Source of the DNA: Thermoanaerobaculales bacterium
GTDB lineage: Bacteria; Acidobacteriota; Thermoanaerobaculia; Thermoanaerobaculales; Sulfomarinibacteraceae
DNA length: 60,921 nt
Assembly: GCA_021107705.1 (NCBI GenBank)
Contig: JAIOSJ010000289.1
Location: forward strand, 1 to 60,921
Direction: 5' to 3'
The position numbers were made by a program, and so were the translations under genes. Below, piece after piece: positions 3,622 through 56,877 of the stretch (the stretch's first letter is position 1; every line of letters starts with the position of its first letter). The notes under the pieces were generated by a model, which saw only the letters and a program-made list of their open reading frames with translations, was not told the origin of the DNA and ran no database searches.

Positions 3622-4953
3622 ATGTTCGTAAGTATTCTCGCATTTTTCTTTGTCCTCGGTGTGCTCGTGGTCCTCCACGAGGCCGGGCATTTCCTCGTGG
3701 CGCGTTTTCTCGGTGCGCCGGTTGAAGTTTTTTCGGTCGGTTTCGGAAAGAGAATCTGGGGCTTTGAGCGAGGGGGAACCGATTATCGCCTGAGTATCGT
3801 TCCCTTTGGCGGCTATGTTCGGATCGTGGGTCTGGGTCCTGACGAGTCGGACCTCGTGGGCGACAGCGACGTCGAGCCGGAGCTTCTTCCCCGTTGGCAG
3901 CGCGCTCTCATTTTGCTTGGCGGACCACTGACGAACGTCGTGGCGGCCGTCGTGCTCGTTGCCATTGCATTCATGATCGGTGTTGAAGTTCCGGCCTATC
4001 GAACTGGTGTGCCGAGTGTGGGTTGGGTCGAGCCTACCGCGCCGGCCGCCGCCGCGGGCATTCAACAGGGGGATCTCGTTCTGTCCGTGGATGGGGTCAT
4101 GACCGACAACTGGCAGGAACTGGAGGTCGAGATCTTGTCCTCGGGCGGACGAGAAGTCGTCCTCCTCCTTGAGAGAAACGGCAAGCAAATCGAAATCAGC
4201 CTGACTCCCGAGAAGGTGTCTCGCTACGGTTTCGGCTACTCCGGAATGCTGCCCCCGCTGAGTTCGGAGATCGTGAAGATTCAGCCCGGGTCTCCTGCTG
4301 CTGCTGCCGGCCTCCAGCCCGGTGACCGAATTCATGCGGTCAACGGCGAGACCGTCGAGCAATTTTACGATCTGATCCGGCTGATCTCACCCCACCCAAA
4401 TGAAGAGATCACCCTACTCATAGCACGCTCCGGCGAGAACAAGACGGTCGCCATAACTCCCCGCGAGAGCGGCGGAGAAGGCAAGATCGGAATCGCGCTC
4501 ATTTTCCCCAGTCGGTTTGAACGCCTCGGTCCGGTGGCCGCCACCGGCACCGCCGTTCGTGAATGCCGTCGCATGACCCGCGAGACCTTCCGGGTCCTTG
4601 GTCGGCTCCTGACCGGCAAGGCCTCACTGAACCAGGTGTCGGGTCCAATCGACATCGCAAGGATTTCCGGTGAGGCCGCCAAGGCCGGCATCCACTCACT
4701 CATTTGGTTGATGGGCGTCATTTCGCTCCAGTTGGGCATTTTCAATCTGCTGCCGATCCCTGTTCTCGACGGGGGCCATCTCGCGATTCTCAGCGTCGAA
4801 TCGGCTCTGCGCCGAGATCTTTCGCTCAAGCTCAAGGAACGCATCCTCGAAATCGGATTCGTTGCGTTGATCTTGCTGATGGTTGTGGTGCTTTTCAACG
4901 ATGTCCTGAAAATCTTGCCCGAAAACCTCTACCAGATGTTCTCCCGCGGTTGA
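3622..4953 (+). CDS. rseP: RIP site-2 zinc metalloprotease (M50) with PDZ domains
   Basis: HEAGHF (HExxH) lies about 19 aa from the ATG at 3622, and NLLPIPVLDGGH lies near the C-terminus. The ORF could also start at the TTG at 3595. Confidence 0.9.
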   Translation: MFVSILAFFFVLGVLVVLHEAGHFLVARFLGAPVEVFSVGFGKRIWGFERGGTDYRLSIVPFGGYVRIVGLGPDESDLVGDSDVEPELLPRWQRALILLGGPLTNVVAAVVLVAIAFMIGVEVPAYRTGVPSVGWVEPTAPAAAAGIQQGDLVLSVDGVMTDNWQELEVEILSSGGREVVLLLERNGKQIEISLTPEKVSRYGFGYSGMLPPLSSEIVKIQPGSPAAAAGLQPGDRIHAVNGETVEQFYDLIRLISPHPNEEITLLIARSGENKTVAITPRESGGEGKIGIALIFPSRFERLGPVAATGTAVRECRRMTRETFRVLGRLLTGKASLNQVSGPIDIARISGEAAKAGIHSLIWLMGVISLQLGIFNLLPIPVLDGGHLAILSVESALRRDLSLKLKERILEIGFVALILLMVVVLFNDVLKILPENLYQMFSRG

Positions 4954-4976
4954 AGGTCGGAGGAAGATCACCAGCG

Positions 4977-8966: not shown

Positions 8967-9056
8967 GGAGAGGTGCCAGAGTGGTCGATCGGGGCGGTCT
9001 CGAAAACCGTTGACCTTTCACGAGGTCCAAGGGTTCGAATCCCTTCCTCTCCGCCA
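8967..9056 (+). tRNA. tRNA-Ser (anticodon CGA)
   Basis: Hand-folded cloverleaf: acceptor GGAGAGG/CCTCTCC, anticodon loop CU-CGA-AA, long variable arm, T-loop GGTTCGAATCC, encoded CCA. Confidence 0.9.
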
Positions 9057-9078: not shown

Positions 9079-9168
<90 letters not shown>

Positions 9169-9180
9169 GTGAGTCTTTCA

Positions 9181-9307
9181 GGGGCCCTTGGTGGAGTCCG
9201 GGCCCTGTGCATCGTCGCTCTTCGAATCGTGTCAGGCCCGGAAGGGAGCAGCACTAAGAGGAATTCCGGCGAGTGCCGCAGGGTACCCGGGCTCCATCAA
9301 GGGCCTC
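9181..9307 (+). ncRNA. ffs: signal recognition particle RNA (small bacterial 4.5S type)
   Basis: Contains GTCAGGCCCGGAAGGGAGCAGCA, matching the conserved helix-8 motif GUCAGGUCCGGAAGGAAGCAGC. The 5' GGGGCCCTTGGTGGAGTCCGGG pairs with the 3' CCCGGGCTCCATCAAGGGCCTC. Confidence 0.85.
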
Positions 9308-9316
9308 TTTCTACGC

Positions 9317-9416
9317 TACCCCGCATTTCTTATCAATGATCTGGTGCGGCCGGCGATGCACCATGCCCAGCGGCCCTTCGACGCCCTCGTGACGAAAGCC
9401 GGTGAAGTGCGGGCTA
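9317..9416 (+). repeat. short (about 100 nt) degenerate member of the intergenic inverted-repeat element family (copy C)
   Basis: TACCCCGCATTTC (5') and GAAGTGCGGGCTA (3') are near-complementary. They resemble the termini of the copies at 18.4 and 53.7 kb. Internal GCACCATGCCCAGCGG and GACGAAAGCC resemble blocks of those copies. Confidence 0.5.
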
Positions 9417-9497
9417 CCCACCCCTCGACTGATTTCTGGTTCTGCCTTGCTCGGTATGGCGGTAACACCGAATCCGTTGTGATGTTAAGATGCACCT

Positions 9498-18363: not shown

Positions 18364-18549
18364 TTGGCCCGCACTTCTCACCGTGTTTCGTCGCGAGGGC
18401 TGCGAAGGGTAGTTAGATGTTGGGTTTTTCGGGAATCGGGCGACGCAGTCGTAGCAACGCTCCGTCGAGGAGAACGATTTGCGAAAAGCACGACAAATGG
18501 CTGCCATGCGCCGCCCGCAGCAGACAGCTGGTGAGAAGCGCGGGTTAGG
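18364..18549 (+). repeat. 186-nt intergenic inverted-repeat element (copy A)
   Basis: CCCGCACTTCTCACC (18368-18382) pairs with GGTGAGAAGCGCGGG (18530-18544). It is collinear with the 53.7 kb copy, needing one 1-nt indel, with about 120 identical positions by hand count. Confidence 0.8.
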
Positions 18550-18556
18550 AGGTCCT

Positions 18557-19783
18557 ATGAGCCTGGAAAAACTTAACGCCGCCTTGGTTGACGAGGTCCG
18601 GAATCTCGAGCAGGAGGGACGGGCGAAAACGGCCGAGAGAGTCATCGTGGGTTATGAACCGCCACAAGGAGATTTTGGGCCCCGCTACAGGCTCAAGGGC
18701 TCCGGCATTGGTTTCATCCGCATGAACTCCAACTCATACCTGTCTCTCTCCCACCACCCCGAGGTCATATCGGAGGCCGACAAGGCAACACATATCTTCG
18801 GCGTCGGACCGGGAGCAGTCCGCTTTATCGACGGCACCTTCAACTATCACGTGGCCCTCGAACGAGACATCGCCGAATTTGTCGACAAGCCGGCAGCGAA
18901 GATCTTCAATTCGGCCTACACCGCCAACCTCGGTCTTGCGCTTGCGATCGCCGGCCCCCGGACCTACTGGGTGGGCGATGCGCTGAACCACAACTCCATC
19001 ATCCGTGCCATGCGTATCGCCGGGGTTCCGCGTGAGAACAAGGCGATTTACAAGCACAACGACATGGATGACCTTGGGCGCTGTCTCGACCACATTCCAG
19101 CCGGTATGGACCGGGTGGTTGTGATCTTTGACGGGATCTTCTCCATGCGTGGCGACAACGCTCCGATGACCGAGATCCACCGTCGATGTGAGCCTCACCG
19201 AGATCGGTTCTCCAGTGGTCTGGTGACGGTCGTCGACGACAGCCATGGTCTCGGCGCCTATGGCGCTACAGGGCGCGGTACCGAAGATTTCTGCGGTACC
19301 AAAGCCGACATCACGGTGGGGACCTTCGGCAAGGCATTCGGCGTCAACGGCGGCTTCGTCGCCGCCAGCCCCGAGCTCACCGAGACGATCCGCCAGAAAG
19401 CCGACACCTACATCTACACCAATCCGCTGAGTGTTGCCGATTGTGCCGCGGCCTCGAAGGCCCTCGACATTGCCGACAGTCCTGCGGGCGCCGAGAGGCT
19501 CGAACATCTGCGTGCCATGACGGGTCTTTTTCGCCAAGGCATCTCGGACCTCGGCTGGGAATCTATCCCGGGACCCCACCCGATTGTGCCGTTGCTGGTC
19601 CGCGAGACCGAAAAGACCAAGAAACTCGTCCGGCATTTCTACGACCATGGTGTACTGGTCGTCGGTCTCGCCTTCCCGGTCGTCCCCAAGGGTGACGACA
19701 CGATTCGGGTACAGATCAATGCCGCCCACACGGAAGCAGATATCAAAACGGCCTTGGGCGTGCTGGAGAGTTTTTCAAGTTAG
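18557..19783 (+). CDS. PLP-dependent alpha-oxoamine synthase family (2-amino-3-ketobutyrate CoA ligase / 8-amino-7-oxononanoate synthase-like)
   Basis: ATG at 18557 after TAGGAGG. NSYLSLS, DDSHGLGAYGATGRG and the PLP-lysine context TFGKAFG. Confidence 0.85.
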   Translation: MSLEKLNAALVDEVRNLEQEGRAKTAERVIVGYEPPQGDFGPRYRLKGSGIGFIRMNSNSYLSLSHHPEVISEADKATHIFGVGPGAVRFIDGTFNYHVALERDIAEFVDKPAAKIFNSAYTANLGLALAIAGPRTYWVGDALNHNSIIRAMRIAGVPRENKAIYKHNDMDDLGRCLDHIPAGMDRVVVIFDGIFSMRGDNAPMTEIHRRCEPHRDRFSSGLVTVVDDSHGLGAYGATGRGTEDFCGTKADITVGTFGKAFGVNGGFVAASPELTETIRQKADTYIYTNPLSVADCAAASKALDIADSPAGAERLEHLRAMTGLFRQGISDLGWESIPGPHPIVPLLVRETEKTKKLVRHFYDHGVLVVGLAFPVVPKGDDTIRVQINAAHTEADIKTALGVLESFSS

Positions 19784-19968
19784 AAGCCCTGTGAACATGT
19801 CATCCGCGAAGCGAAAGGCTCGAGAGGCTGTGAGATGTGTCTTTCTCGCGAAGTCGTAACCCGAAGGCGTATCAAGAGATACGTTGAGGGTAACGACGAG
19901 CGAAAATCGCGTAGATTGCTGTGAATCGAGCATTGCAGCCGCGAGAGGCATTTTCACAGGGCTTTTAG
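19782..19968 (+). repeat. 187-nt intergenic inverted-repeat element (copy D, divergent subfamily)
   Basis: 19781-19795 pairs with 19953-19967 (14 Watson-Crick pairs plus 1 G.T). Same 90+97 nt layout as the 53.7 kb copy, with shared blocks GCTCGAGA, AGGCGTA, CGTTGAGG and CGAG..GCGAAA. Confidence 0.7.
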
Positions 19969-28722: not shown

Positions 28723-28928
28723 CCTAGAGGCCCGGCCGGAAACCCCCTCGCGGCTGCAAATCGCGAATGAGGCGACGCCCACTCTGGGGCCGGCGACCCA
28801 GAGCGGGTCCCTATCTGTGTTTCCGTAAGTCATTGAAGTAGAACGACTACGCCTGCGGCCTTCCGGAAGCACATCGCGCACCTCCCCATAATTTCGCTTC
28901 GCAAGGGGTTTTCGGCCGGGTCTCTAGG
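28723..28928 (-). repeat. roughly 206-nt intergenic inverted-repeat element (copy E, inverted orientation)
   Basis: CCTAGAGGCCCGGCCGGAAACCCCC (28723-28747) versus GGGGTTTTCGGCCGGGTCTCTAGG (28905-28928). The minus strand carries GCGAAGCGAAA, AGGCGTA and TGCAGCCGCGAG in the same order as copy D. Confidence 0.7.
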
Positions 28929-38670: not shown

Positions 38671-41454
38671 TCATTTGATTTTGAACGGCACGCGGACCGG
38701 AATCCACATGCGAACCTTGACACCATGTTTGGTCGCGGCTTTGTAGCGCCACTTGCTCACCGCCGATTCCGCGGCCTTCTCGAAACCAACTCCAGGTCGA
38801 GTGGACTTTACCACTTTCACCTGCTCGACGACACCATCGATTCCGAGCAAGATTTCAAGGTTCACAGTACCCTGCGCTTGCAACTTGAGCGCCATCGGTG
38901 GGTACGACGGCGTTTTCTGGCTTATCGGTACGGGAAGAACCACCCCGCGGTCACCCGGCTGGACGATGTCGCCTTCCCTCACCGAAGGTGTGGGCGTGGG
39001 TGGAATCGGCGTCGGTGTAGGCGTGGGTGGAATCGGCGTCGGCGTAGGCGGTACGACCGTCGGCTCAGGCGCCACTTCCTCCGGCTCGGGCGTCGGTTCG
39101 GGCGTCGGCTCAGGCGTCGGCGTTGGGGGTATCGGCGTCGGTGTCGGGAAATCCTGTTGGAGGCGCTCCCGAATTTCTTCGGTCTTTTCTTCGACCATCT
39201 GCGCCGCCGCCAGGGCGGCAGCCTCTGCCATCTCTTCTTCGGTCAAAAGGCCGGCCCCGGTATCGGGAGTTCCCGGTTCTTCAACATCCGCGGAAACGGC
39301 CGGCAGGGGCGTCGGGGTTGTCGGCGGACCTTCGCCGCCACCACCGCCCAAAATTGCATAGAGCCCGACGGCAACCACGACCAAGGCCGCGAAACCGATC
39401 AACAACCATTTTACTCCCGACTTGCTTTTCTCCGGTTCTTCTTGTGGAGCTTCCTCGACGATGACCTCAGGTTCAGGCGGCGACTCGGGCTCAACCGGCA
39501 CTTCGGACTCAACCGGCACCTCTGGCTCAACCGGTACCTCGGGTTGGGCTTCCTCAGGAATATCAACGGCCGGCACAGCATCACTTTCCTCGACCTTGGG
39601 GGGTTCGGGCAGGATCGCTCCTGCCTTCTTGCCTGTCTTGCGCCCCTCGATAGGCGTAATGACTTCGCCGGCAACCAGTTCCTGTATGAATCGCGCAATG
39701 GTAATTGAATCAACGGCCCAACCATGTTTTCGCTGTGCCTTTTCCAGGTCTCGGTGGAAGTTCCGAGCGGACTGATAGCGCTTTTCTTTGTCCGAAGCGA
39801 GGGCTTTCAAAACGATTTTTTCTACGTCTTGAGGCACATCGGGGTTGATCTTGGAGGGCGACTTGACCTCTGGATTGCGAACTTGTTCGAGAATCGACAG
39901 TTCAGAATCACCGGCAAAGAGCTTGGCGCCGGTCAACATCTCAAACAACACCAAACCAAGAGAAAAGATATCCGACCGGTGGTCGATGCTCTTGCCCCAT
40001 GCCTGCTCGGGAGACATGTATTGGAGCTTGCCCTTGAGAGCGCCGGCGCGAGTGTGAGATGCCTTCGAGGCCGCTTTCGCAATTCCGAAGTCGCACAGCT
40101 TGATGTCACCGTCGAGGGAGATCAGCACATTCTGTGGGGACACGTCACGGTGAACCAGCCCGAGATCACGATTCTCGAAGTCGCGTTTACGGTGCGCATA
40201 GTCCAAGGCCGAAGCCAACAGATTCGTGATGTGGACGCAGATCGGAGTCGGCAGGATGATATCGCGGTCACGGCAACTCTTGAGCAAGGAACGCAGATCC
40301 CGGCCCTCGATATATTCCATCGCGATGTAGTAGGACCGATCGATCTTGCCGAGGTCATAGATGTGAATAATGTTGTTGTGGTTCAGCTGTGCGGCCAGCT
40401 TCGCCTCGTCAATAAACATTGTGACGAATTCATCGTTATCGGTCAGGTGAGGCAAGATTCGCTTGATGGCTACGGTCTTTTGAAAGCCCTCCATACCCAT
40501 CATACGAGCCTTGTGAACCTCCGCCATGCCGCCTGTCGCAATGTGGTCCTGCAGTACGTATTGGCCAAACTGAGACCCCTCGGCAACCGGTTCTTCAGCT
40601 TTGGGAATCGGCGTCTGTTCCGGCGGCGGTGGTGGTGCGGCCTTGGGTGGCGGAGCGTCGGCGGGCGTTTCGACCAAGCCTTTCACCTCCGCCTTCGCCT
40701 CCTTGGCCTTCCTACGAACCGGCTGAATATCGAGGCCTGCCAAGGTCTGGGAGAGAATGGCATCGACATCGGTCTCGGTCGGAGGCGCAACCCTCTTGAT
40801 CGGACGGACCGTTTGACTCTCCTTCAAGACCTCCGACAACACATCATCCGCCGCACCTGTGGTCGGGGCTTTCTTTTCGAGGGGCTGGGACGTCGGAGGG
40901 GCATCGTCGGTCGACGTGGCCTTTTCTTCATCGCCGACATGGTCGTCGTCTTCGACATCCGACAGGATATCTCCGAAGAGTTCGTCGGAAGTCAGGCTCT
41001 TGGCTTCGCCTTCAAGACCCGCACCTCGTCGGAGAGCATCCAACGTGGCCCGGGGAATGGCCTGGGTCGCTGCGGGGTCTTTTGAGCGTTCAACAAGGTC
41101 ATGGACCCGTTGCACCAACGCCTCTCCCGAAAAGGGTCTTTCGAGGATGTCCTGGGCGCCATACTGCTTGGCATCCTCCGGAGAATCTCCTCCACGATAA
41201 CCCGACATCAAAATAAGAATCGACGTCGATTGCAACCCTGCCCGCGCACGCAACTGTGTAATGGCATCCTCGATCTTAATCCTCGGCAGAACCGAGGTGA
41301 TGACCACAACCTTTGGTTCGAAAGTGGCACAGCAGTCCACGGCGGCATCGACATCAGCAACAATCTCGAGCCGATACTCCGAACTCTCCAACGCCTTTTG
41401 AACCCGTTCTATGTATCGCGGCTCGTACTCAATGAGAAGGATATTCGCGCTCAT
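38671..41454 (-). CDS. pseudo-receiver / Ser-Thr protein kinase / TM / Pro-rich linker / TonB C-terminal domain fusion protein
   Basis: Hanks kinase motifs GGMAEVHKA...AIK, HRDVSPQNVL, DFGIAKA and SPEQ. TM helix WLLIGFAALVVVAVGLYAIL. (PTPxP)n linker. C-terminal TonB_C-like domain of about 85 aa. The ORF can extend to the GTG at 41490. Confidence 0.85.
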   Translation of the reverse strand: MSANILLIEYEPRYIERVQKALESSEYRLEIVADVDAAVDCCATFEPKVVVITSVLPRIKIEDAITQLRARAGLQSTSILILMSGYRGGDSPEDAKQYGAQDILERPFSGEALVQRVHDLVERSKDPAATQAIPRATLDALRRGAGLEGEAKSLTSDELFGDILSDVEDDDHVGDEEKATSTDDAPPTSQPLEKKAPTTGAADDVLSEVLKESQTVRPIKRVAPPTETDVDAILSQTLAGLDIQPVRRKAKEAKAEVKGLVETPADAPPPKAAPPPPPEQTPIPKAEEPVAEGSQFGQYVLQDHIATGGMAEVHKARMMGMEGFQKTVAIKRILPHLTDNDEFVTMFIDEAKLAAQLNHNNIIHIYDLGKIDRSYYIAMEYIEGRDLRSLLKSCRDRDIILPTPICVHITNLLASALDYAHRKRDFENRDLGLVHRDVSPQNVLISLDGDIKLCDFGIAKAASKASHTRAGALKGKLQYMSPEQAWGKSIDHRSDIFSLGLVLFEMLTGAKLFAGDSELSILEQVRNPEVKSPSKINPDVPQDVEKIVLKALASDKEKRYQSARNFHRDLEKAQRKHGWAVDSITIARFIQELVAGEVITPIEGRKTGKKAGAILPEPPKVEESDAVPAVDIPEEAQPEVPVEPEVPVESEVPVEPESPPEPEVIVEEAPQEEPEKSKSGVKWLLIGFAALVVVAVGLYAILGGGGGEGPPTTPTPLPAVSADVEEPGTPDTGAGLLTEEEMAEAAALAAAQMVEEKTEEIRERLQQDFPTPTPIPPTPTPEPTPEPTPEPEEVAPEPTVVPPTPTPIPPTPTPTPIPPTPTPSVREGDIVQPGDRGVVLPVPISQKTPSYPPMALKLQAQGTVNLEILLGIDGVVEQVKVVKSTRPGVGFEKAAESAVSKWRYKAATKHGVKVRMWIPVRVPFKIK

Positions 41455-41806
41455 TTCACCATCCTCAGCAGTGGAACTGGACAAAGACACCTATCTCATT
41501 ATGTTCGAGCCTTCCGTGAAGTCAACCACAAAACTCGCGAGAGGAATCAAAGTTCTTGAGATGCGGCGTCTCGGGCTTCCAATCGCTCTGTCTGTCGTTG
41601 GCCGCGTCTGCTTTTCGGGTCAGACCGGCGGTGGTCGATTTCCAGCGCAATTTCCGGGATAATGGCGTCGATCGGGATGAGCGTCGATTGTGTTGGGCGG
41701 CATGAATCGAACGAAGGGTCGTTCGGCACCCTCGCGCGGTCTTGCGGAGACACCTTCGACGCATTCCGAAATTTCGGGCCACCGAGCCCAGCCGCAGGGA
41801 GGCGTA

Positions 41807-43912: not shown

Positions 43913-44353
43913 ATGGCAGTCATCCGCGGTAGAGAGAAAAAAGGCGGCGGCGAGATTTTCACGGCGTCGATGGCGGATATCGTCTTCCTGCTCATCGTCT
44001 TCTTCGTGTTGACTTACAACACCGAAGTGGACAGAACTCAGGTAGACCTTCCCGAAACCTGGGTGCGCACCGAGGTTCCAAAAAAGGCCGCGGTCATTTC
44101 GATTTCTCCGCCCGATCAGGGTGAGGTCATCCGGGTTTCGACCGGTGAAGAAATGTCTCTGCCCGTGAGTACCATCGAAGAGGTCGTGACCTTCGCGTCC
44201 ACCGTGGTAGCCCAGGATCCGGAGAAAGAATTCATCATCAAAGCCGATTATGGGGTCCACTACGAGAAGATCGACTCGGTACTCGATGCTCTCAAGCAGT
44301 CCAAGGTGAAGATCATCTACCTGCTTTCGCAGCAAAAGACCGTCGGCACGTAA
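43913..44353 (+). CDS. exbD: ExbD/TolR biopolymer transport protein
   Basis: MADIVFLLIVFFVL N-terminal TM with the conserved Asp. Periplasmic domain ...IIKADYGVHYEKIDSVLDAL. Confidence 0.85.
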   Translation: MAVIRGREKKGGGEIFTASMADIVFLLIVFFVLTYNTEVDRTQVDLPETWVRTEVPKKAAVISISPPDQGEVIRVSTGEEMSLPVSTIEEVVTFASTVVAQDPEKEFIIKADYGVHYEKIDSVLDALKQSKVKIIYLLSQQKTVGT

Positions 44354-44364
44354 CGGGGGAGATC

Positions 44365-44841
44365 ATGTCGGTTTTTAAAGGAATGAAACGAGAGATCGAG
44401 AGCGAGATTTTCACTGGCTCAATGGCTGACATCTCCTTTCTTCTCATCATCTATTTCATGGTCACCTCGGTATTTTCCGCGACTCGTGGGTTGGATTTCG
44501 CCCTTCCCGATGACGACCGTGAAACCCCCGAGATCAAGCAGGAAGATTCGATCGACGTCTTTGTCCAACCTGGTGGAGACATCATGCTCGACGGCAATCT
44601 TATGCCGGCCGATCAGATCGATGAACAGCTCCTGAAATACATCGCGGACACGCTCAAGGACAACCCGAAGAAGCCCGTGATCCTCAGGACCGACCCTGAA
44701 GCCACCTACGGCAACATGATTTTCGTATTCGACATCCTTCGAACTCCTGTTGAGGATGGAGGAATCAAGATCGAAACGATTTCAATTCCAACCCAGCGCG
44801 AAATGCAGAATATTTGGACGATGCTGGGTATCGCCCAATGA
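44365..44841 (+). CDS. exbD: ExbD/TolR biopolymer transport protein (second paralogue)
   Basis: MADISFLLIIYFMV TM segment. ILRTDPEATYGNMIFVFDIL. Confidence 0.85.
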   Translation: MSVFKGMKREIESEIFTGSMADISFLLIIYFMVTSVFSATRGLDFALPDDDRETPEIKQEDSIDVFVQPGGDIMLDGNLMPADQIDEQLLKYIADTLKDNPKKPVILRTDPEATYGNMIFVFDILRTPVEDGGIKIETISIPTQREMQNIWTMLGIAQ

Positions 44842-51834: not shown

Positions 51835-52299
51835 ATGAGTAAACTTGCCCAACGCGCTCAGAAGCTGTTCATTCAGTACCTTCGAGAGAACAACCTGAAA
51901 GTCACTCAGGAACGTCTCGCCCTGCTGGATGAGATCTTTGCCACCAACGAACACCTTGATGCCGATGATCTGTTGGCCTGCATGAAGACGAAGCAGCGCA
52001 AGGTTTCACGGGCCACGGTTTACCGCACCCTGGACCTCTTGGTTCAATGCGGGCTGGTTCGCAAAAGTCGCCTTGGCCGGGAGCACTACTATTACGAGAA
52101 AATGGAGCCGGGCGGGGGTCATCACCACATGGTCTGTACCGCCACCGGGCGGATTATCGAGTTCTGGGATTCGGACCTCGATGAACAGTTGCGGCGTATT
52201 TGCCAGGACCACAAATTTCGCCCATCCTTCATTTCGATCCAAATCCAGGGTCTCAGTGAAGAGGGACAGAAGGTGGAGCAGGAGACGTCGTTCTTCTGA
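51835..52299 (+). CDS. fur: Fur-family metalloregulator
   Basis: LKVTQERLALLDEIF, SRATVYRTLDLLVQCGLV, HHHMVC... Confidence 0.85.
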   Translation: MSKLAQRAQKLFIQYLRENNLKVTQERLALLDEIFATNEHLDADDLLACMKTKQRKVSRATVYRTLDLLVQCGLVRKSRLGREHYYYEKMEPGGGHHHMVCTATGRIIEFWDSDLDEQLRRICQDHKFRPSFISIQIQGLSEEGQKVEQETSFF

Positions 52300-53515
52300 A
52301 GGAAATCCTGGCGAAACGCCGTTTCCCTACCTGGATCAGAATTCCATGGGAATCGCCGGTACATAAGGTCGCTTTTGGATCCTTCACCGGCTCACCCTCA
52401 AGCTTGACTCCACCTTGAGTCATGAGTCTGCGGGCCTCGGAATTTGAGGCGGCCAGCCCAGCCTCCACCAAAACCTTTGAAACCAACGGCGCTTCCTCGT
52501 CGAAGCTGACTTCAACCTCGGGGATGTCGGAGGGCAGGTTGCGCGACGAAAAAACTCGGGCGAACTCAGCCTCCGCTTCCCGGGCGGCGCCCTCATCATG
52601 GAATTCCATCACAATCGATCGCGCAAGGCTCTTTTTCGCATTCATTGGATGCAGGCTGCCTTTTCCCACCTCTTGACGCATTCCTTCTATTTCTTCGGCC
52701 GTGCGATCCGTGAGGAGAAGCCAGTACTTCCACATCAATTCATCGGACACCGACATGACTTTTCCGAACATTTCATTCGCCCCGTCTTCAACGGCGATGG
52801 TGTTGCCAAGACTCTTCGACATCTTTTCCACGCCATCGAGACCCTCGAGCAACGGCAACGTCATCACAACCTGCGGCGCCATTCCGTGCTCCCGCATCAG
52901 ATGTCGTCCCATGAGTAAGTTGAAGAGCTGATCCGTTCCCCCAAGTTCGACGTCACAGCCCAATGACACCGAATCAAAAGCTTGTGCCAGGGGGTACAAG
53001 AACTCGTGGAGAGCGATGGGTTTCTGAGCGTCGTATCGTCGCCGGAAATCGTCCCGCTCAAGCATTTGAGCCACCGTCACCTTGGCTGCCAGCCGAATCC
53101 AGTCGGCTGAACCCAGCTCACCCAACCACCTCGAGTTGAAATCGACGACCGTGGTTTCGGGGTCGAGGAGTTTGAAAATCTGCCGTCGGTAGGTTTCGGC
53201 GTTCGCCTGAATCTCATCGGTCGTGAGCTGTGGTCGTGTGGCGTTCTTTCCGGTTGGATCCCCGATGAGACACGTGAAGTCCCCGATCAGAAATATCACG
53301 CGGTGCCCGAGTTGCTGGAAGTGACGCATCTTGCGGATGATGACCGTGTGACCGAGATGAAGGTCGGGCGCAGATGGGTCGAATCCTACCTTGACCGTCA
53401 GGGGGTTTTCATCTGCCAGAGACTTTTCGAGCTTCTTCTGCAGTTCCTCGCGCGGGATTACGTCCACACAACCCTTGGTCAGGTAATCGAGTTGCCGCTT
53501 CAGTTCGGTATTCAT
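52253..53515 (-). CDS. tyrS: tyrosyl-tRNA synthetase
   Basis: HIGH-type motif (DLHLGH), KMSKS (KMSKSLGN), C-terminal S4-like domain. GGAGGA lies upstream. Confidence 0.95.
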   Translation of the reverse strand: MNTELKRQLDYLTKGCVDVIPREELQKKLEKSLADENPLTVKVGFDPSAPDLHLGHTVIIRKMRHFQQLGHRVIFLIGDFTCLIGDPTGKNATRPQLTTDEIQANAETYRRQIFKLLDPETTVVDFNSRWLGELGSADWIRLAAKVTVAQMLERDDFRRRYDAQKPIALHEFLYPLAQAFDSVSLGCDVELGGTDQLFNLLMGRHLMREHGMAPQVVMTLPLLEGLDGVEKMSKSLGNTIAVEDGANEMFGKVMSVSDELMWKYWLLLTDRTAEEIEGMRQEVGKGSLHPMNAKKSLARSIVMEFHDEGAAREAEAEFARVFSSRNLPSDIPEVEVSFDEEAPLVSKVLVEAGLAASNSEARRLMTQGGVKLEGEPVKDPKATLCTGDSHGILIQVGKRRFARISFRRTTSPAPPSVPLH

Positions 53516-53596: not shown

Positions 53597-53783
53597 CTAG
53601 CCCGCACTTCTCACCAGTTTTCGTAGCGAGATGCTCGAGACGCCGTGCCATGCTCGGTTTTTCGTGGCTTGGCCAACGTAGGCGTACTTGACAGTCCGTT
53701 GAGGCGGGCGAGTTGCGAAAGGCACGGCAGGGTACAGTGTATCGGGTGTCGTAGTAGATCACTGGTGAGAAGTGCGGGCTAGG
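53597..53783 (+). repeat. 187-nt intergenic inverted-repeat element (copy B, best-preserved)
   Basis: CTAGCCCGCACTTCTCACCAGT (53597-53618) is the exact reverse complement of ACTGGTGAGAAGTGCGGGCTAG (53761-53782). Confidence 0.85.
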
Positions 53784-53841: not shown

Positions 53842-55863
53842 TCACTCACTCGACAGAATGACGGGGAGGGGACCGGAGGATGTCCTCTCCATCGTCTCGG
53901 TCTGGAGAATTCGGGTCAGGGTGGCGTTCACTGCCTCAAGCTCAACGGTCAGCACCGTCATTTCCGCCTTGGCCGGCTCCCGCCAGGAATCCTCACCAGC
54001 GGCCACCTGGGCACAGGCCCGAGCCCGGCCCATTACACCGCTCGCGGTACTGATGACCGACGCCGCCACCTTGCGGCGAACACCTTGAACCTCGTCTTCA
54101 GTGGTCAAAGAGAAAAGATCGGACCAGCTCTGCTCCAGCAGGGTTTCGAGCTCATCGATACTTCCCTCTCGTTCAACCAACATCACGAACACCGTACGGC
54201 CCGGGAGCAAGGGGTGGAGAATATCCACCCGCGCTCCTTCGAGCACCGTCTCCGCCCTTTGGTTAACGATCTGCGCAACCATCTCGGGAATGGGAAAACC
54301 TTCTTCGAAATAGATCGCCGCTGCGACAGCCGCTTTTCTGCCCGCGGCGGGGAGACGACGGCGGGCCTGGTCCACAAGTGACGCCGACAACCGCGGAGCG
54401 CCGGAAGATGTGCCTCCGACGCCGAATTTGCGCAGGGCTTCTACGGCTGCCTCGGCATCGGGAGTCACCGCACCGATCACAAGGTTCTCGGATGCCAGAA
54501 CCCCGGCCGGGCTGACGACTGAACTGCTGTCGAGTCCGAACACACCAGCCATCAAACGCAGCGCACGTGCTCGGGCTGTCTCACTTGAGGTCACCTCCTG
54601 ATGATCGTTCGCGACAACTTCAAGGGCCTCCTGTAATGCCTCCGTCAAGGACGCAAAGTCATCCGACGAGGTGGCCAACTCCAACCGGGGCGGATGCACC
54701 TCGACTTTGATGAACGGCGGCCTGGTCTCCTGGGTCCTGAGGGCCGCCGCGACCCTGGCCAGGATTACCGCCTCCACATCGCCCGCGAGACCCGACAGCA
54801 ATACCGGGCGCATGACCAATGCCGACAGGCTAGCGGTCGGTCGTTCGAGAACTGCGACGGCGAGATCGTTGTCGAGCCGAACTTCGAGTGGACCGGGAGC
54901 AAAACGAGGACGAAAAACCCGTGGGGGCAAGACCAGAACCGCATGGCCCGGGTGACTCGGCAACCACCCACGAGCCGCCTCCCGCACCGAAAGCACAGTA
55001 ACTCCATCGGGGCCGAACAGATGGTGCCGCACCGCATCCGCGCCGCCGCGTCTCCACAAATCCAGCAACTGCCGGGTCGCCGGTTCAACCCTCTCCAGCT
55101 CGGCCTGACGACCAATTCGTAGCCGCCGCGCCTCATTTTCAACCTCCGACCCGATCAAAGCGGGATCTCCCGCCAGGCGGGCCAGACTTAACCGCAGTTT
55201 CCGCAGAGTCACATCGGCCAGCTCCGGGTCAACAGAGGTTTCGACGTGCCCAACATCCCCAACAATCCCGCTGCGCAAACCTGGGTGCTCCACTCGAAAA
55301 TATCGCGGTAACAGATGCCACAGGACCTCGATCGCCGAGCGTTGCGCACTTTCGGGTGGCGGCAAAGGCACCTCGAGCCGCAGAGTGGAAGGCGCACCAA
55401 GGGTGCCCAGTCGGCGTTCCTGGCCGCCTTCCTCAAAGGCATTGGTCCGCCTTTCGTCAAGCGGTGACAGGAGTCGATCCCGGAGAGTCCGGCGAAGGAG
55501 GTCGATCAGGGCGGATCGTCCGACGCCTCCCACGACGACCACAACCGGCGGAGCATCGCCCTCAACAATTTCCTTTTCAAGCTCTCCCAGAAAGACGAGC
55601 TCGCTGCCCATGACACAGTGTGCCTCAAGAACTTCATTCGCCCGCGGCCAGCAGGCCGCCGACGCCTCGGCCAACGGCTCGGTCACCAGGATTACTTCGG
55701 TTCCACCCTCCAGGGTCTCCACCGCCAGGGCCTGGGCCGAGGCATCAGAGGAAAAGAAACCAAAACACAGAAAAATAAAGGCACCCATGAAAGCCCGAAA
55801 AGCTCTCGGATCAAGCTGGCCAATTATTCCCATAAGACGCATAACTCCCACGCCATCAATCAT
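53842..55863 (-). CDS. hypothetical secreted protein (about 670 aa; possibly a distant inactive M16-peptidase-like fold)
   Basis: Long coherent ORF with an N-terminal signal-like FMGAFIFLCFGFFSSDASAQA. No HxxEH motif seen, so the function call is weak. Confidence 0.6.
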   Translation of the reverse strand: MIDGVGVMRLMGIIGQLDPRAFRAFMGAFIFLCFGFFSSDASAQALAVETLEGGTEVILVTEPLAEASAACWPRANEVLEAHCVMGSELVFLGELEKEIVEGDAPPVVVVVGGVGRSALIDLLRRTLRDRLLSPLDERRTNAFEEGGQERRLGTLGAPSTLRLEVPLPPPESAQRSAIEVLWHLLPRYFRVEHPGLRSGIVGDVGHVETSVDPELADVTLRKLRLSLARLAGDPALIGSEVENEARRLRIGRQAELERVEPATRQLLDLWRRGGADAVRHHLFGPDGVTVLSVREAARGWLPSHPGHAVLVLPPRVFRPRFAPGPLEVRLDNDLAVAVLERPTASLSALVMRPVLLSGLAGDVEAVILARVAAALRTQETRPPFIKVEVHPPRLELATSSDDFASLTEALQEALEVVANDHQEVTSSETARARALRLMAGVFGLDSSSVVSPAGVLASENLVIGAVTPDAEAAVEALRKFGVGGTSSGAPRLSASLVDQARRRLPAAGRKAAVAAAIYFEEGFPIPEMVAQIVNQRAETVLEGARVDILHPLLPGRTVFVMLVEREGSIDELETLLEQSWSDLFSLTTEDEVQGVRRKVAASVISTASGVMGRARACAQVAAGEDSWREPAKAEMTVLTVELEAVNATLTRILQTETMERTSSGPLPVILSSE

Positions 55864-55890
55864 GTCGAAGCGCCATGGTAGCATGCTCCA

Positions 55891-56877
55891 ATGAGTTCGA
55901 GACCGGATGCAAACGCTCCCCAAGCCTTCCTTGTGAGCTGGATGGCGGCACTTGGGAGCATGCTTGGCGCAATTGTGTTTACCGTGATAGGCCAGGCATT
56001 TGGGGCGGCACTTGGTGGTTGTGTTTGGATTGGCGCTACCCTACCGATTCATCGACAGCCGTGGGCTCTGGTCAACCAGCCGTCGCTGGCCTTCGCGTCT
56101 CAAGCATCAGGCCTGGGTTATTGGCTTGGCGGCGTGGCGCTCTGTCTCGCGATTTCACTGCTTGCCGTCAATATTCTGCCACGCCCACGCGGCCTGGTCT
56201 GGGAACTCGCCACTATTCAAATGGCTTGGGGGGCAGCAGTCGTCGGTCTTGGTTGGATTCCTCTGATCGATCCTTGGGACGGTCATGTCTCGAAACTCCT
56301 CCGTCTCTACGGCCATTCCACGGCTTGGGTGTGGGTCTTTCCGGTTCTTGGCGCCTGGGCCGGTCTCATCGCGACCATTCGCTTGCTTGCCCTCGTACGC
56401 AGCGCTCGTCCGCGACATTCTCGCGCTGATCGCCTCGCTACCGTCATTTTTCACCAGGCTGTTCCTGTCGCGGTTTGGATCGGGGCCGGAACGATGCTCG
56501 CCGCGGTCAACGAAAGCGGAACAACCTCCGGCACTTCATCTGATCCCACCGCAATTCTCTTTCGCCTCTGGGCGCCGGCCTTCGGCGCGGCCCTGCCGGT
56601 CATCGCCGCCATATCTCTCGCTTGGTTCGCATATCCCCGACCCTGGGTCGGACGGCTCGAGGACCTGAGATCCGGCGGGTTCGTAGTCATGGCGGCCGGA
56701 GTCGCTTTGCTCCTGAGTCTCTGCCTCTTCTTTGGTCGACCCATTCCTCCCGGTTCTTGCAGCGGAGTCTTGTGGGCGCCTGCAAATTCGAGGAACAACG
56801 TACGTCCATGGATCAAGCCGATCGATTTCACCGCGGACAGGGGACTGTCGGTTCAGCCTTCGCAATCGGTGGAATAG
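55891..56877 (+). CDS. hypothetical polytopic membrane protein
   Basis: About eight hydrophobic helices, divergent from the upstream gene. No motif recognised. Confidence 0.6.
   Translation: MSSRPDANAPQAFLVSWMAALGSMLGAIVFTVIGQAFGAALGGCVWIGATLPIHRQPWALVNQPSLAFASQASGLGYWLGGVALCLAISLLAVNILPRPRGLVWELATIQMAWGAAVVGLGWIPLIDPWDGHVSKLLRLYGHSTAWVWVFPVLGAWAGLIATIRLLALVRSARPRHSRADRLATVIFHQAVPVAVWIGAGTMLAAVNESGTTSGTSSDPTAILFRLWAPAFGAALPVIAAISLAWFAYPRPWVGRLEDLRSGGFVVMAAGVALLLSLCLFFGRPIPPGSCSGVLWAPANSRNNVRPWIKPIDFTADRGLSVQPSQSVE

Follow-up and report, generated by a model that had tools for sequence, protein, structure and literature searches.

Our analysis identifies the 187-nt element at 53597-53783 as, very probably, a MITE, a DNA transposon that is not autonomous and depends on a DDE-type transposase supplied in trans, which would act through a 4-nt stagger at YTAR. 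It lies in a window of 60,921 nt (the whole stretch of Thermoanaerobaculales DNA that was analysed) and belongs to a family with a non-coding body of 178-181 nt, terminal inverted repeat (TIR) pairs in 47 copies and a target-site duplication. Five copies are present in these 61 kb and many per genome elsewhere, in keeping with the dispersed family of MITE-like abundance that had been proposed from the window alone. The original prediction had found the family not assignable to a known class, and on this point we disagree: with TIRs, a 4-bp YTAR duplication, a high copy number and near-identity among the copies of one genome, it is a standard MITE.

To describe the copies in the window we used R1, a covariance model of 29 diverse family members with which the whole window was scanned with filters off. 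The 187-nt intergenic element, which we call copy A, is closed exactly as had been described, by a perfect 22-nt inverted repeat whose arms (53597-53618 and 53761-53782) are 142 nt apart. Each arm comprises 18 nt of TIR and the palindromic CTAG. Read on the + strand, the left target-site duplication CTAG (53597..53600) is followed by the body (53601..53778, R1 183 bits), with TIRs CCCGCACTTCTCACCAGT and ACTGGTGAGAAGTGCGGG around a rod-forming interior, and then by the identical 4-mer of the right duplication (53779..53782). At the centre of the body, an apex module (53669..53711, + strand; apex model R2, 49 bits, E=2e-12) consists of a 7-8 bp hairpin, GGCGTA..TACGTT, over G/A-rich internal loops, and then GAGG. 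The host site is intergenic, between tyrS (52253-53515, - strand) and an ORF of 693 aa (53842-55923, - strand) without a Pfam match, and copy A is antisense to both of these neighbours.

Copy B (18364-18549, + strand, R1 180 bits) is of the B-type, the commonest sub-family among MAGs, and lies between the serS stop (18291) and an aminotransferase gene, the neighbours being assigned by Pfam. Copies A and B align end to end with 129 identical positions, where a hand count had given about 120, and the alignment of A, B and C is nearly gap-free. Furthermore, the 30-nt core CGTYGAGGNNNNCGANNNGCGAAANNCNCG has three exact matches in the window, in A, B and C, against 0.07 expected by chance. Copy C (19780-19968, + strand, R1 103 bits) represents the C-type, which combines its own TIR, AAGCCCTGTGAA.., with the shared interior. 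Between a radical-SAM gene and a BlaR1/TonB-like gene lies copy D (28723-28928, - strand), a distant 204-nt relative with the TIR AGACCCGGCCG.., in which the apex model R2 finds no match. Copy E (9315-9418, - strand, R1 41 bits, E=1e-8) has a body of 94 nt, with 7 nt in place of about 88 apical positions of the R1 model. The five window copies are all related, as the five-member family of the original prediction implied, but D only marginally so (R1 18 bits, E=0.004). Similarly, the short copy that had been placed at 9317-9416 does belong to the family, but it is an apex-deleted derivative and sits on the minus strand, not the plus strand. The start of copy E is 20 nt downstream of a small SRP RNA gene (9196-9295, 72.5 bits), which itself follows two tRNA-Ser genes at 8967-9056 and 9079-9168 (anticodons CGA and GGA).

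The family is lineage-specific. A core-pattern scan of a species-representative genome collection yielded 68 loci, about 55 of which are true copies. The true copies outside the window are 187 nt each. One strand folds as a near-continuous rod (-90 to -132 kcal/mol), and the fold of the other is weaker by 20-45 kcal/mol. The remaining loci (Dactylosporangium, Telmatospirillum and others) do not have this fold and were discarded as chance matches. The hosts are at least 14 species-level MAGs with the labels Thermoanaerobaculales, Thermoanaerobaculia, Holophagae, Acidobacteriota and Ca. Sulfomarinibacteraceae. One long-read MAG holds at least 17 copies with the exact core, near-identical to one another. 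Near-identity of the copies within a MAG is found elsewhere too, and many short contigs stop inside a copy, as is typical of a high-copy repeat.

Typical B-type copies were also seen in two MAGs with other labels, many of them in HYP3_US_05_8 ('Deltaproteobacteria bacterium'; loci L001, L002, L006, L030-L032, L037, L047 and L059) and others in SG_15_bin16 ('Desulfobacteria bacterium'; L046). Probably these are mislabels; otherwise the family reaches beyond Acidobacteriota. Locus L019 has three copies in less than 5 kb, one of which (4759-4958) is truncated by the end of the contig and contains about 45 nt of extra sequence beside the apex. In L062 (529-2871), two elements of different sub-families lie 2 kb apart in the same orientation, with CTAG at both outer ends. 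This layout could be composite-transposon-like, but CTAG is the commonest target and a coincidence is possible. Short units with YTAR and 16-nt inverted repeats, of sequences unrelated to the family, occur at L099 1535-1703 and L140 2993-3117, and may represent further MITE families in related metagenomic contigs.

The boundaries of the element establish that the target is duplicated. Elements of the A and B types run from YTAR and CCCGCACTTCTCACC.. to ..GGTGAGAAGTGCGGG and YTAR; that is, the 4 nt outside CCCGC...GCGGG are YTAR on either side. We obtained 47 TIR pairs, with 46 scorable flank pairs, and the flanking 4-mers were identical in 24 of these: 16 are palindromic, 8 match only as direct repeats and none matches only as an inverted repeat. 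The informative non-palindromic flanks are all direct (CTAA..CTAA, TTAG..TTAG), which proves that YTAR is not part of the inverted repeat. The direct-only 4-mers also rule out a 2-bp TA duplication of the IS630/Correia type, in which the outer R/Y base would be part of the TIR. The suspicion that the TA or CTAG ends were a target-site signature is borne out in the window, where matching 4-mers flank all five copies, read as CTAG/CTAG for A, TTGG/TTAG for B, TTAG/TTAG for C, CTAG/CTAG for D and, on its own strand, GTAG/GTAG for E. The flanks of copy E are a direct repeat that is not YTAR.

The duplicated 4-mer often coincides with a stop codon. At four loci (L054, L027, L035 and L052) the element separates a convergent gene pair in which each gene terminates in one copy of the 4-mer, the + strand gene in TAR of the left 4-mer and the - strand gene in the reverse complement of the right YTA. 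This is direct proof that a single YTAR, in which both stops once overlapped, was later duplicated. In the window, the left TTAG of copy C holds the TAG stop of the aminotransferase gene, whose relatives end the protein there with TGA or TAA. Overall, a long ORF has its stop codon in the 4-mer in 14 of 37 full-length copies (10 in sense, 6 convergent, 2 both). As a control, 39 of 194 other YTAR sites in the same loci (20%) are such stops. A cruder gene caller gave 16 sense and 11 convergent stop-codon junctions. YTAR is rare in these genomes of ~59-64% GC and about one fifth of its sites are TAA or TAG stop codons, so that the insertions that survive are intergenic and often placed exactly on a stop. 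We hence attribute the association mostly to a rare target and to the loss of disruptive insertions. Orientation with respect to the upstream gene is weakly biased (33 sense versus 19 antisense).

At the sites of copies B and C, no element was found in 80 metagenomic loci that encode proteins related to the aminotransferase (64-81% amino-acid identity), among them L069, which is syntenic from serS onwards. In the 424 kb of those 80 loci there are only three elements, all of them elsewhere. The closest relatives are ~73% identical at the DNA level, and no clean filled-versus-empty orthologous site was obtained at high flank identity. A copy upstream of tyrS in L007 was considered as an ortholog of A and rejected: its flanks are dissimilar and the neighbouring gene differs, and it is hence an independent insertion. 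Copies at L052 6429-6614 and L058 4088-4274 lie between the same convergent genes in distantly related MAGs (flanking proteins 47-57% identical). They are in opposite orientation, which again points to the same stop-codon target having been used repeatedly. In L069, the closest syntenic relative, an additional - strand ORF of 339 aa (1895-2914) occupies the place of the window's copy B between serS and the aminotransferase gene.

No protein is encoded by the element. The minus-strand ORFs of 98-99 aa that cover A and B had been taken for non-coding, rightly so: of 29 representative copies, at most 5 have any given reading frame open, and the products of the A and B ORFs align over 49 residues only. 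We therefore reject the coding hypothesis, since the ORFs are not conserved. At the gathering threshold, the Rfam matches in the whole window are limited to the SRP RNA and two tRNAs, and at E<=10 there is nothing meaningful on an A-type copy and nothing on a B-type copy. The Rfam check that had been proposed, with Acido-1 and Acido-Lenti-1 included, thus gave no clean match, and neither these two covariance models nor that of 6S matched. In copy A we found no sigma-70-type promoter and no intrinsic terminator.

The fold of copy A reaches -111 kcal/mol on the + strand (z = -10.5) and -78 kcal/mol on the - strand, with values of -99.6 kcal/mol (z = -7.5) for copy B and -89.7 kcal/mol (z = -10) for copy C. 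An alignment of 29 sequences yields a consensus rod of 57 pairs, 34 of which show double compensatory changes. Standard pairs fill 93.7% of the cells, against 81.9% in column shuffles. Covariation scores 0.388, compared with 0.186 for the shuffles (0/500 reach the observed value) and 0.05-0.08 for slid partners. Among 14 sub-family representatives we counted 133 G·U pairs and 16 single (1x1) A·C mismatches, an excess proving that the fold is specific to one strand. The apex is not a free-standing motif, since R2 matches only inside elements.

This fold is retained in sub-families whose terminal arms are wholly different (CCCGCACTTCTCACC in A/B, AAGCCCTGTGAA in C, AGACCCGGCCG in D, CCCGCATTATTCATG in J and GACCTAAAGTGAGTGG in K). 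Common to all are YTAR-type flanks, a length of ~170-206 nt, identical asymmetric internal loops and a single type of apex, in which the 7-8 bp hairpin GGCRTA..TAYGTY rests on a 3x2 loop and a tandem GA/GA loop, both G/A-rich, with GAG after it. The positions of G·U pairs are likewise shared between sub-families with different TIRs. Covariation would come for free if each sub-family had been born as a foldback of one IS end. The shared asymmetric loops and G·U positions reject such independent origins and show that pairing was maintained while the sub-families diverged. On the other hand, the private substitutions of 18 young B-type copies include 14 that break a pair, 10 that keep it and none that is compensated, which is close to the neutral expectation. 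Individual copies thus decay neutrally, and it is the proliferating lineages that are under constraint, rather than every inserted copy. Apparently, the fold benefits the proliferation of the element and not the host.

A transposition cycle can be proposed for such an element. The TIRs (CCCGCACTTCTCACC.. in the A and B types) would be recognised by a DDE-type transposase whose gene lies elsewhere in the genome. This enzyme would make a cut staggered by 4 nt at YTAR, and insertion of the element there would duplicate the 4-mer. At a stop codon, the duplication would regenerate that stop. The whole-length rod, the conserved apex and the strand-specific G·U pairs (G·T in DNA) would be maintained in proliferating lineages, where a folded single strand, or a cruciform juxtaposing the ends of a stiff 187-bp element, may help mobilisation. 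As a secondary possibility, the RNA hairpin might render insertions in 3' UTRs harmless.

As for the enzyme, the TIRs of the family do not seem to resemble those of IS5 (GGAAGGTGCGAA..) or ISEcp1-type ends. The IS5 group does share with the family the presence of TIRs and a 4-bp YTAR duplication. A 4-bp duplication with this consensus (CTAG, CTAA, TTAG, TTAA) is an IS5 signature (PMC5009759, PMC10359306), and from it we infer an IS5-group transposase as the best documented match. The family differs from this group in that neither a transposase gene nor an IS with matching ends was found for it, and in that the whole element is a hairpin, unlike a typical IS end. An IS701- or IS1380/piggyBac-like mobiliser is also possible. 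IS701 produces repeats of 4-5 bp (PMC8024623). The piggyBac elements, of which IS1380 is the prokaryotic relative, use a 4-bp target of TTAA type (rarely TTAG or CTAA) and have TIRs starting with CCC (PMC10813416). A CCC start is found in the A, B, F, G, H, I and J types and not in C (AAGCCC), D (AGACCC) or K (GACC). However, the commonest target of the family is CTAG, and no IS1380-type transposase was found in the fetched loci. In those loci, ~0.8 Mb in total, no autonomous IS has matching TIRs. Searches for a parent IS through unpaired TIRs, through multi-copy proteins among the loci and through the odd end of L045 returned nothing. A search for YTAR direct repeats with 16-nt TIRs spaced 400-3200 bp apart also returned nothing, the L062 arrangement being just two MITEs ~2 kb apart, and plasmid blastn and a viral-contig scan gave no match.

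The classical cut-and-paste mechanism of DDE enzymes works on double-stranded ends, and it does not by itself explain why G·U pairs are conserved on one strand along the rod. A bolder and unlikely reading, to which we nonetheless give some weight, is that of a MITE superfamily whose proliferation needs a strand-specific folded single strand (ssDNA or RNA), with the rod and its G/A-rich apex being recognised in mobilisation. Sub-families would then swap TIRs, and presumably their cognate transposases, while keeping the fold. If true, this would add to DDE-type transposition a structure-dependent step, or a hairpin-binding cofactor, that the reviews consulted do not document for bacterial MITEs.

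The main rival to a MITE whose fold serves proliferation is a MITE that also functions as a structured RNA module, a reading that we find distinctly unlikely. Here selection would act on the transcript of the + strand, a rod whose apical loop motif is G/A-rich. Such an RNA might be a ligand of a host or transposon protein, a substrate of RNase III, or a stabiliser or terminator in 3' UTRs. Covariation, the strand-specific excess of G·U and an apex conserved between sub-families with unrelated TIRs all fit with it, as does the location of many copies in 3' UTRs in sense to the upstream gene. Moreover, transcripts of Correia and ERIC MITEs are known substrates of RNase III and RNase E (PMC10969869). 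However, the orientation bias (33 versus 19) is weak and stop-codon junctions occur at both ends (10 sense, 6 convergent). Copy A is antisense to both neighbours and has neither of the promoter and terminator signals sought, and no Rfam family matches. Young copies gain pair-breaking changes at an approximately neutral rate and without compensation. That there is constraint between sub-families, but neutral decay in single copies, speaks for a role in proliferation, and an RNA function for the host at each site is the less favoured of the two.

Two further explanations were considered. A hairpin moved as single-stranded DNA by an HUH/Y1 enzyme, as in REP/RAYT-like elements or PATEs derived from IS200/IS605, would have its TIR as the base of a long stem. 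This would suit a strand-specific fold, a structure conserved more than sequence and the GTAG tetranucleotides inside the element. Yet we hold it to be very improbable, because such elements make no target-site duplication and a 4-bp duplication is demonstrated in this family, and because neither a Y1 transposase nor a RAYT-like multi-copy gene was seen in the fetched loci. REP/BIME elements, mobilised by RAYT, are palindromes with a GTAG/CGTC tag and without target duplication, a class to which an element of 187 nt with a 4-bp duplication does not belong. REPs are 20-40 nt long (PMC3733652). Paralogous small-RNA genes, such as 6S-like rods, inherited vertically and immobile, would account for a rod of ~185 nt with covariation. 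Against them stand dozens of near-identical copies per genome, in both orientations, with target-site duplications and at sites that differ from one relative to the next. Some copies are truncated or apex-deleted, and neither 6S nor any other Rfam model matches. We regard this last possibility as scarcely credible. An integron attC site was also considered and rejected, for the family shows no array, lacks R'/R'' cores at its ends and has a target duplication.

Among known MITEs, the enterobacterial and neisserial families ERIC and Correia/NEMIS are, like the present one, whole-length imperfect palindromes dispersed in intergenic DNA, but they have no sequence similarity to it and duplicate TA, not YTAR. 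These elements are co-transcribed with flanking genes, and RNase E or RNase III processes their transcripts (PMC10969869). QMITE2 of Coxiella burnetii (~190 bp, with 7-9 bp direct repeats; PMC10969869) is alike in length, in lying chiefly in the 3' UTRs of ORFs and in having truncated derivatives, and differs in repeat length, in its unrelated sequence and in its host. A parallel in shape is Chunjie of Geobacter uraniireducens, a MITE of 178-235 bp with RNA hairpins of -98 to -130 kcal/mol (PMC3184786). The two are of similar size, have TIRs, sit mostly between genes and are predicted to form highly stable RNA hairpins, but Chunjie has 9-bp direct repeats, is A+T-rich and belongs to another phylum, whereas our family has a 4-bp YTAR duplication and ~60% GC. 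Whole-length hairpin MITEs of such size and stability are hence already known. What goes beyond the ordinary is the existence of many sub-families that share fold and apex yet differ in their TIRs, and the strong strand bias of G·U pairs. We found no description of the present family, and Acidobacteria go unmentioned in a 2024 review of prokaryotic MITEs.

These elements matter for annotation. They are frequent in Thermoanaerobaculia genomes, break MAG assemblies, create spurious ORFs of ~100 aa and sit on the stop codons or in the 3' UTRs of housekeeping genes, for example serS, tyrS and the SRP RNA gene. A covariance model of the family would clean up annotation, and the copies are usable as strain markers. 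For biology, they offer a clear natural example of how YTAR targeting makes stop codons safe landing sites in a GC-rich genome. Furthermore, hairpin shape, conserved G·U pairs and apical motif persist across sub-families with exchanged terminal repeats, and the long-standing question of why MITEs are whole-length hairpins becomes testable in the Thermoanaerobaculia lineage.

Two other repeats were noticed in the window. Imperfect tandem repeats at 38979-39147 (period 27 or 21 nt) and 39464-39535 (18 nt) lie inside a - strand ORF of 939 aa (38671-41490), whose product should thus contain a repetitive segment. Two versions of a 64-nt stretch with 75% identity, at 43950-44013 and 44402-44465 (452 nt apart), stand at the starts of two adjacent small + strand ORFs, which look like tandem paralogous genes.
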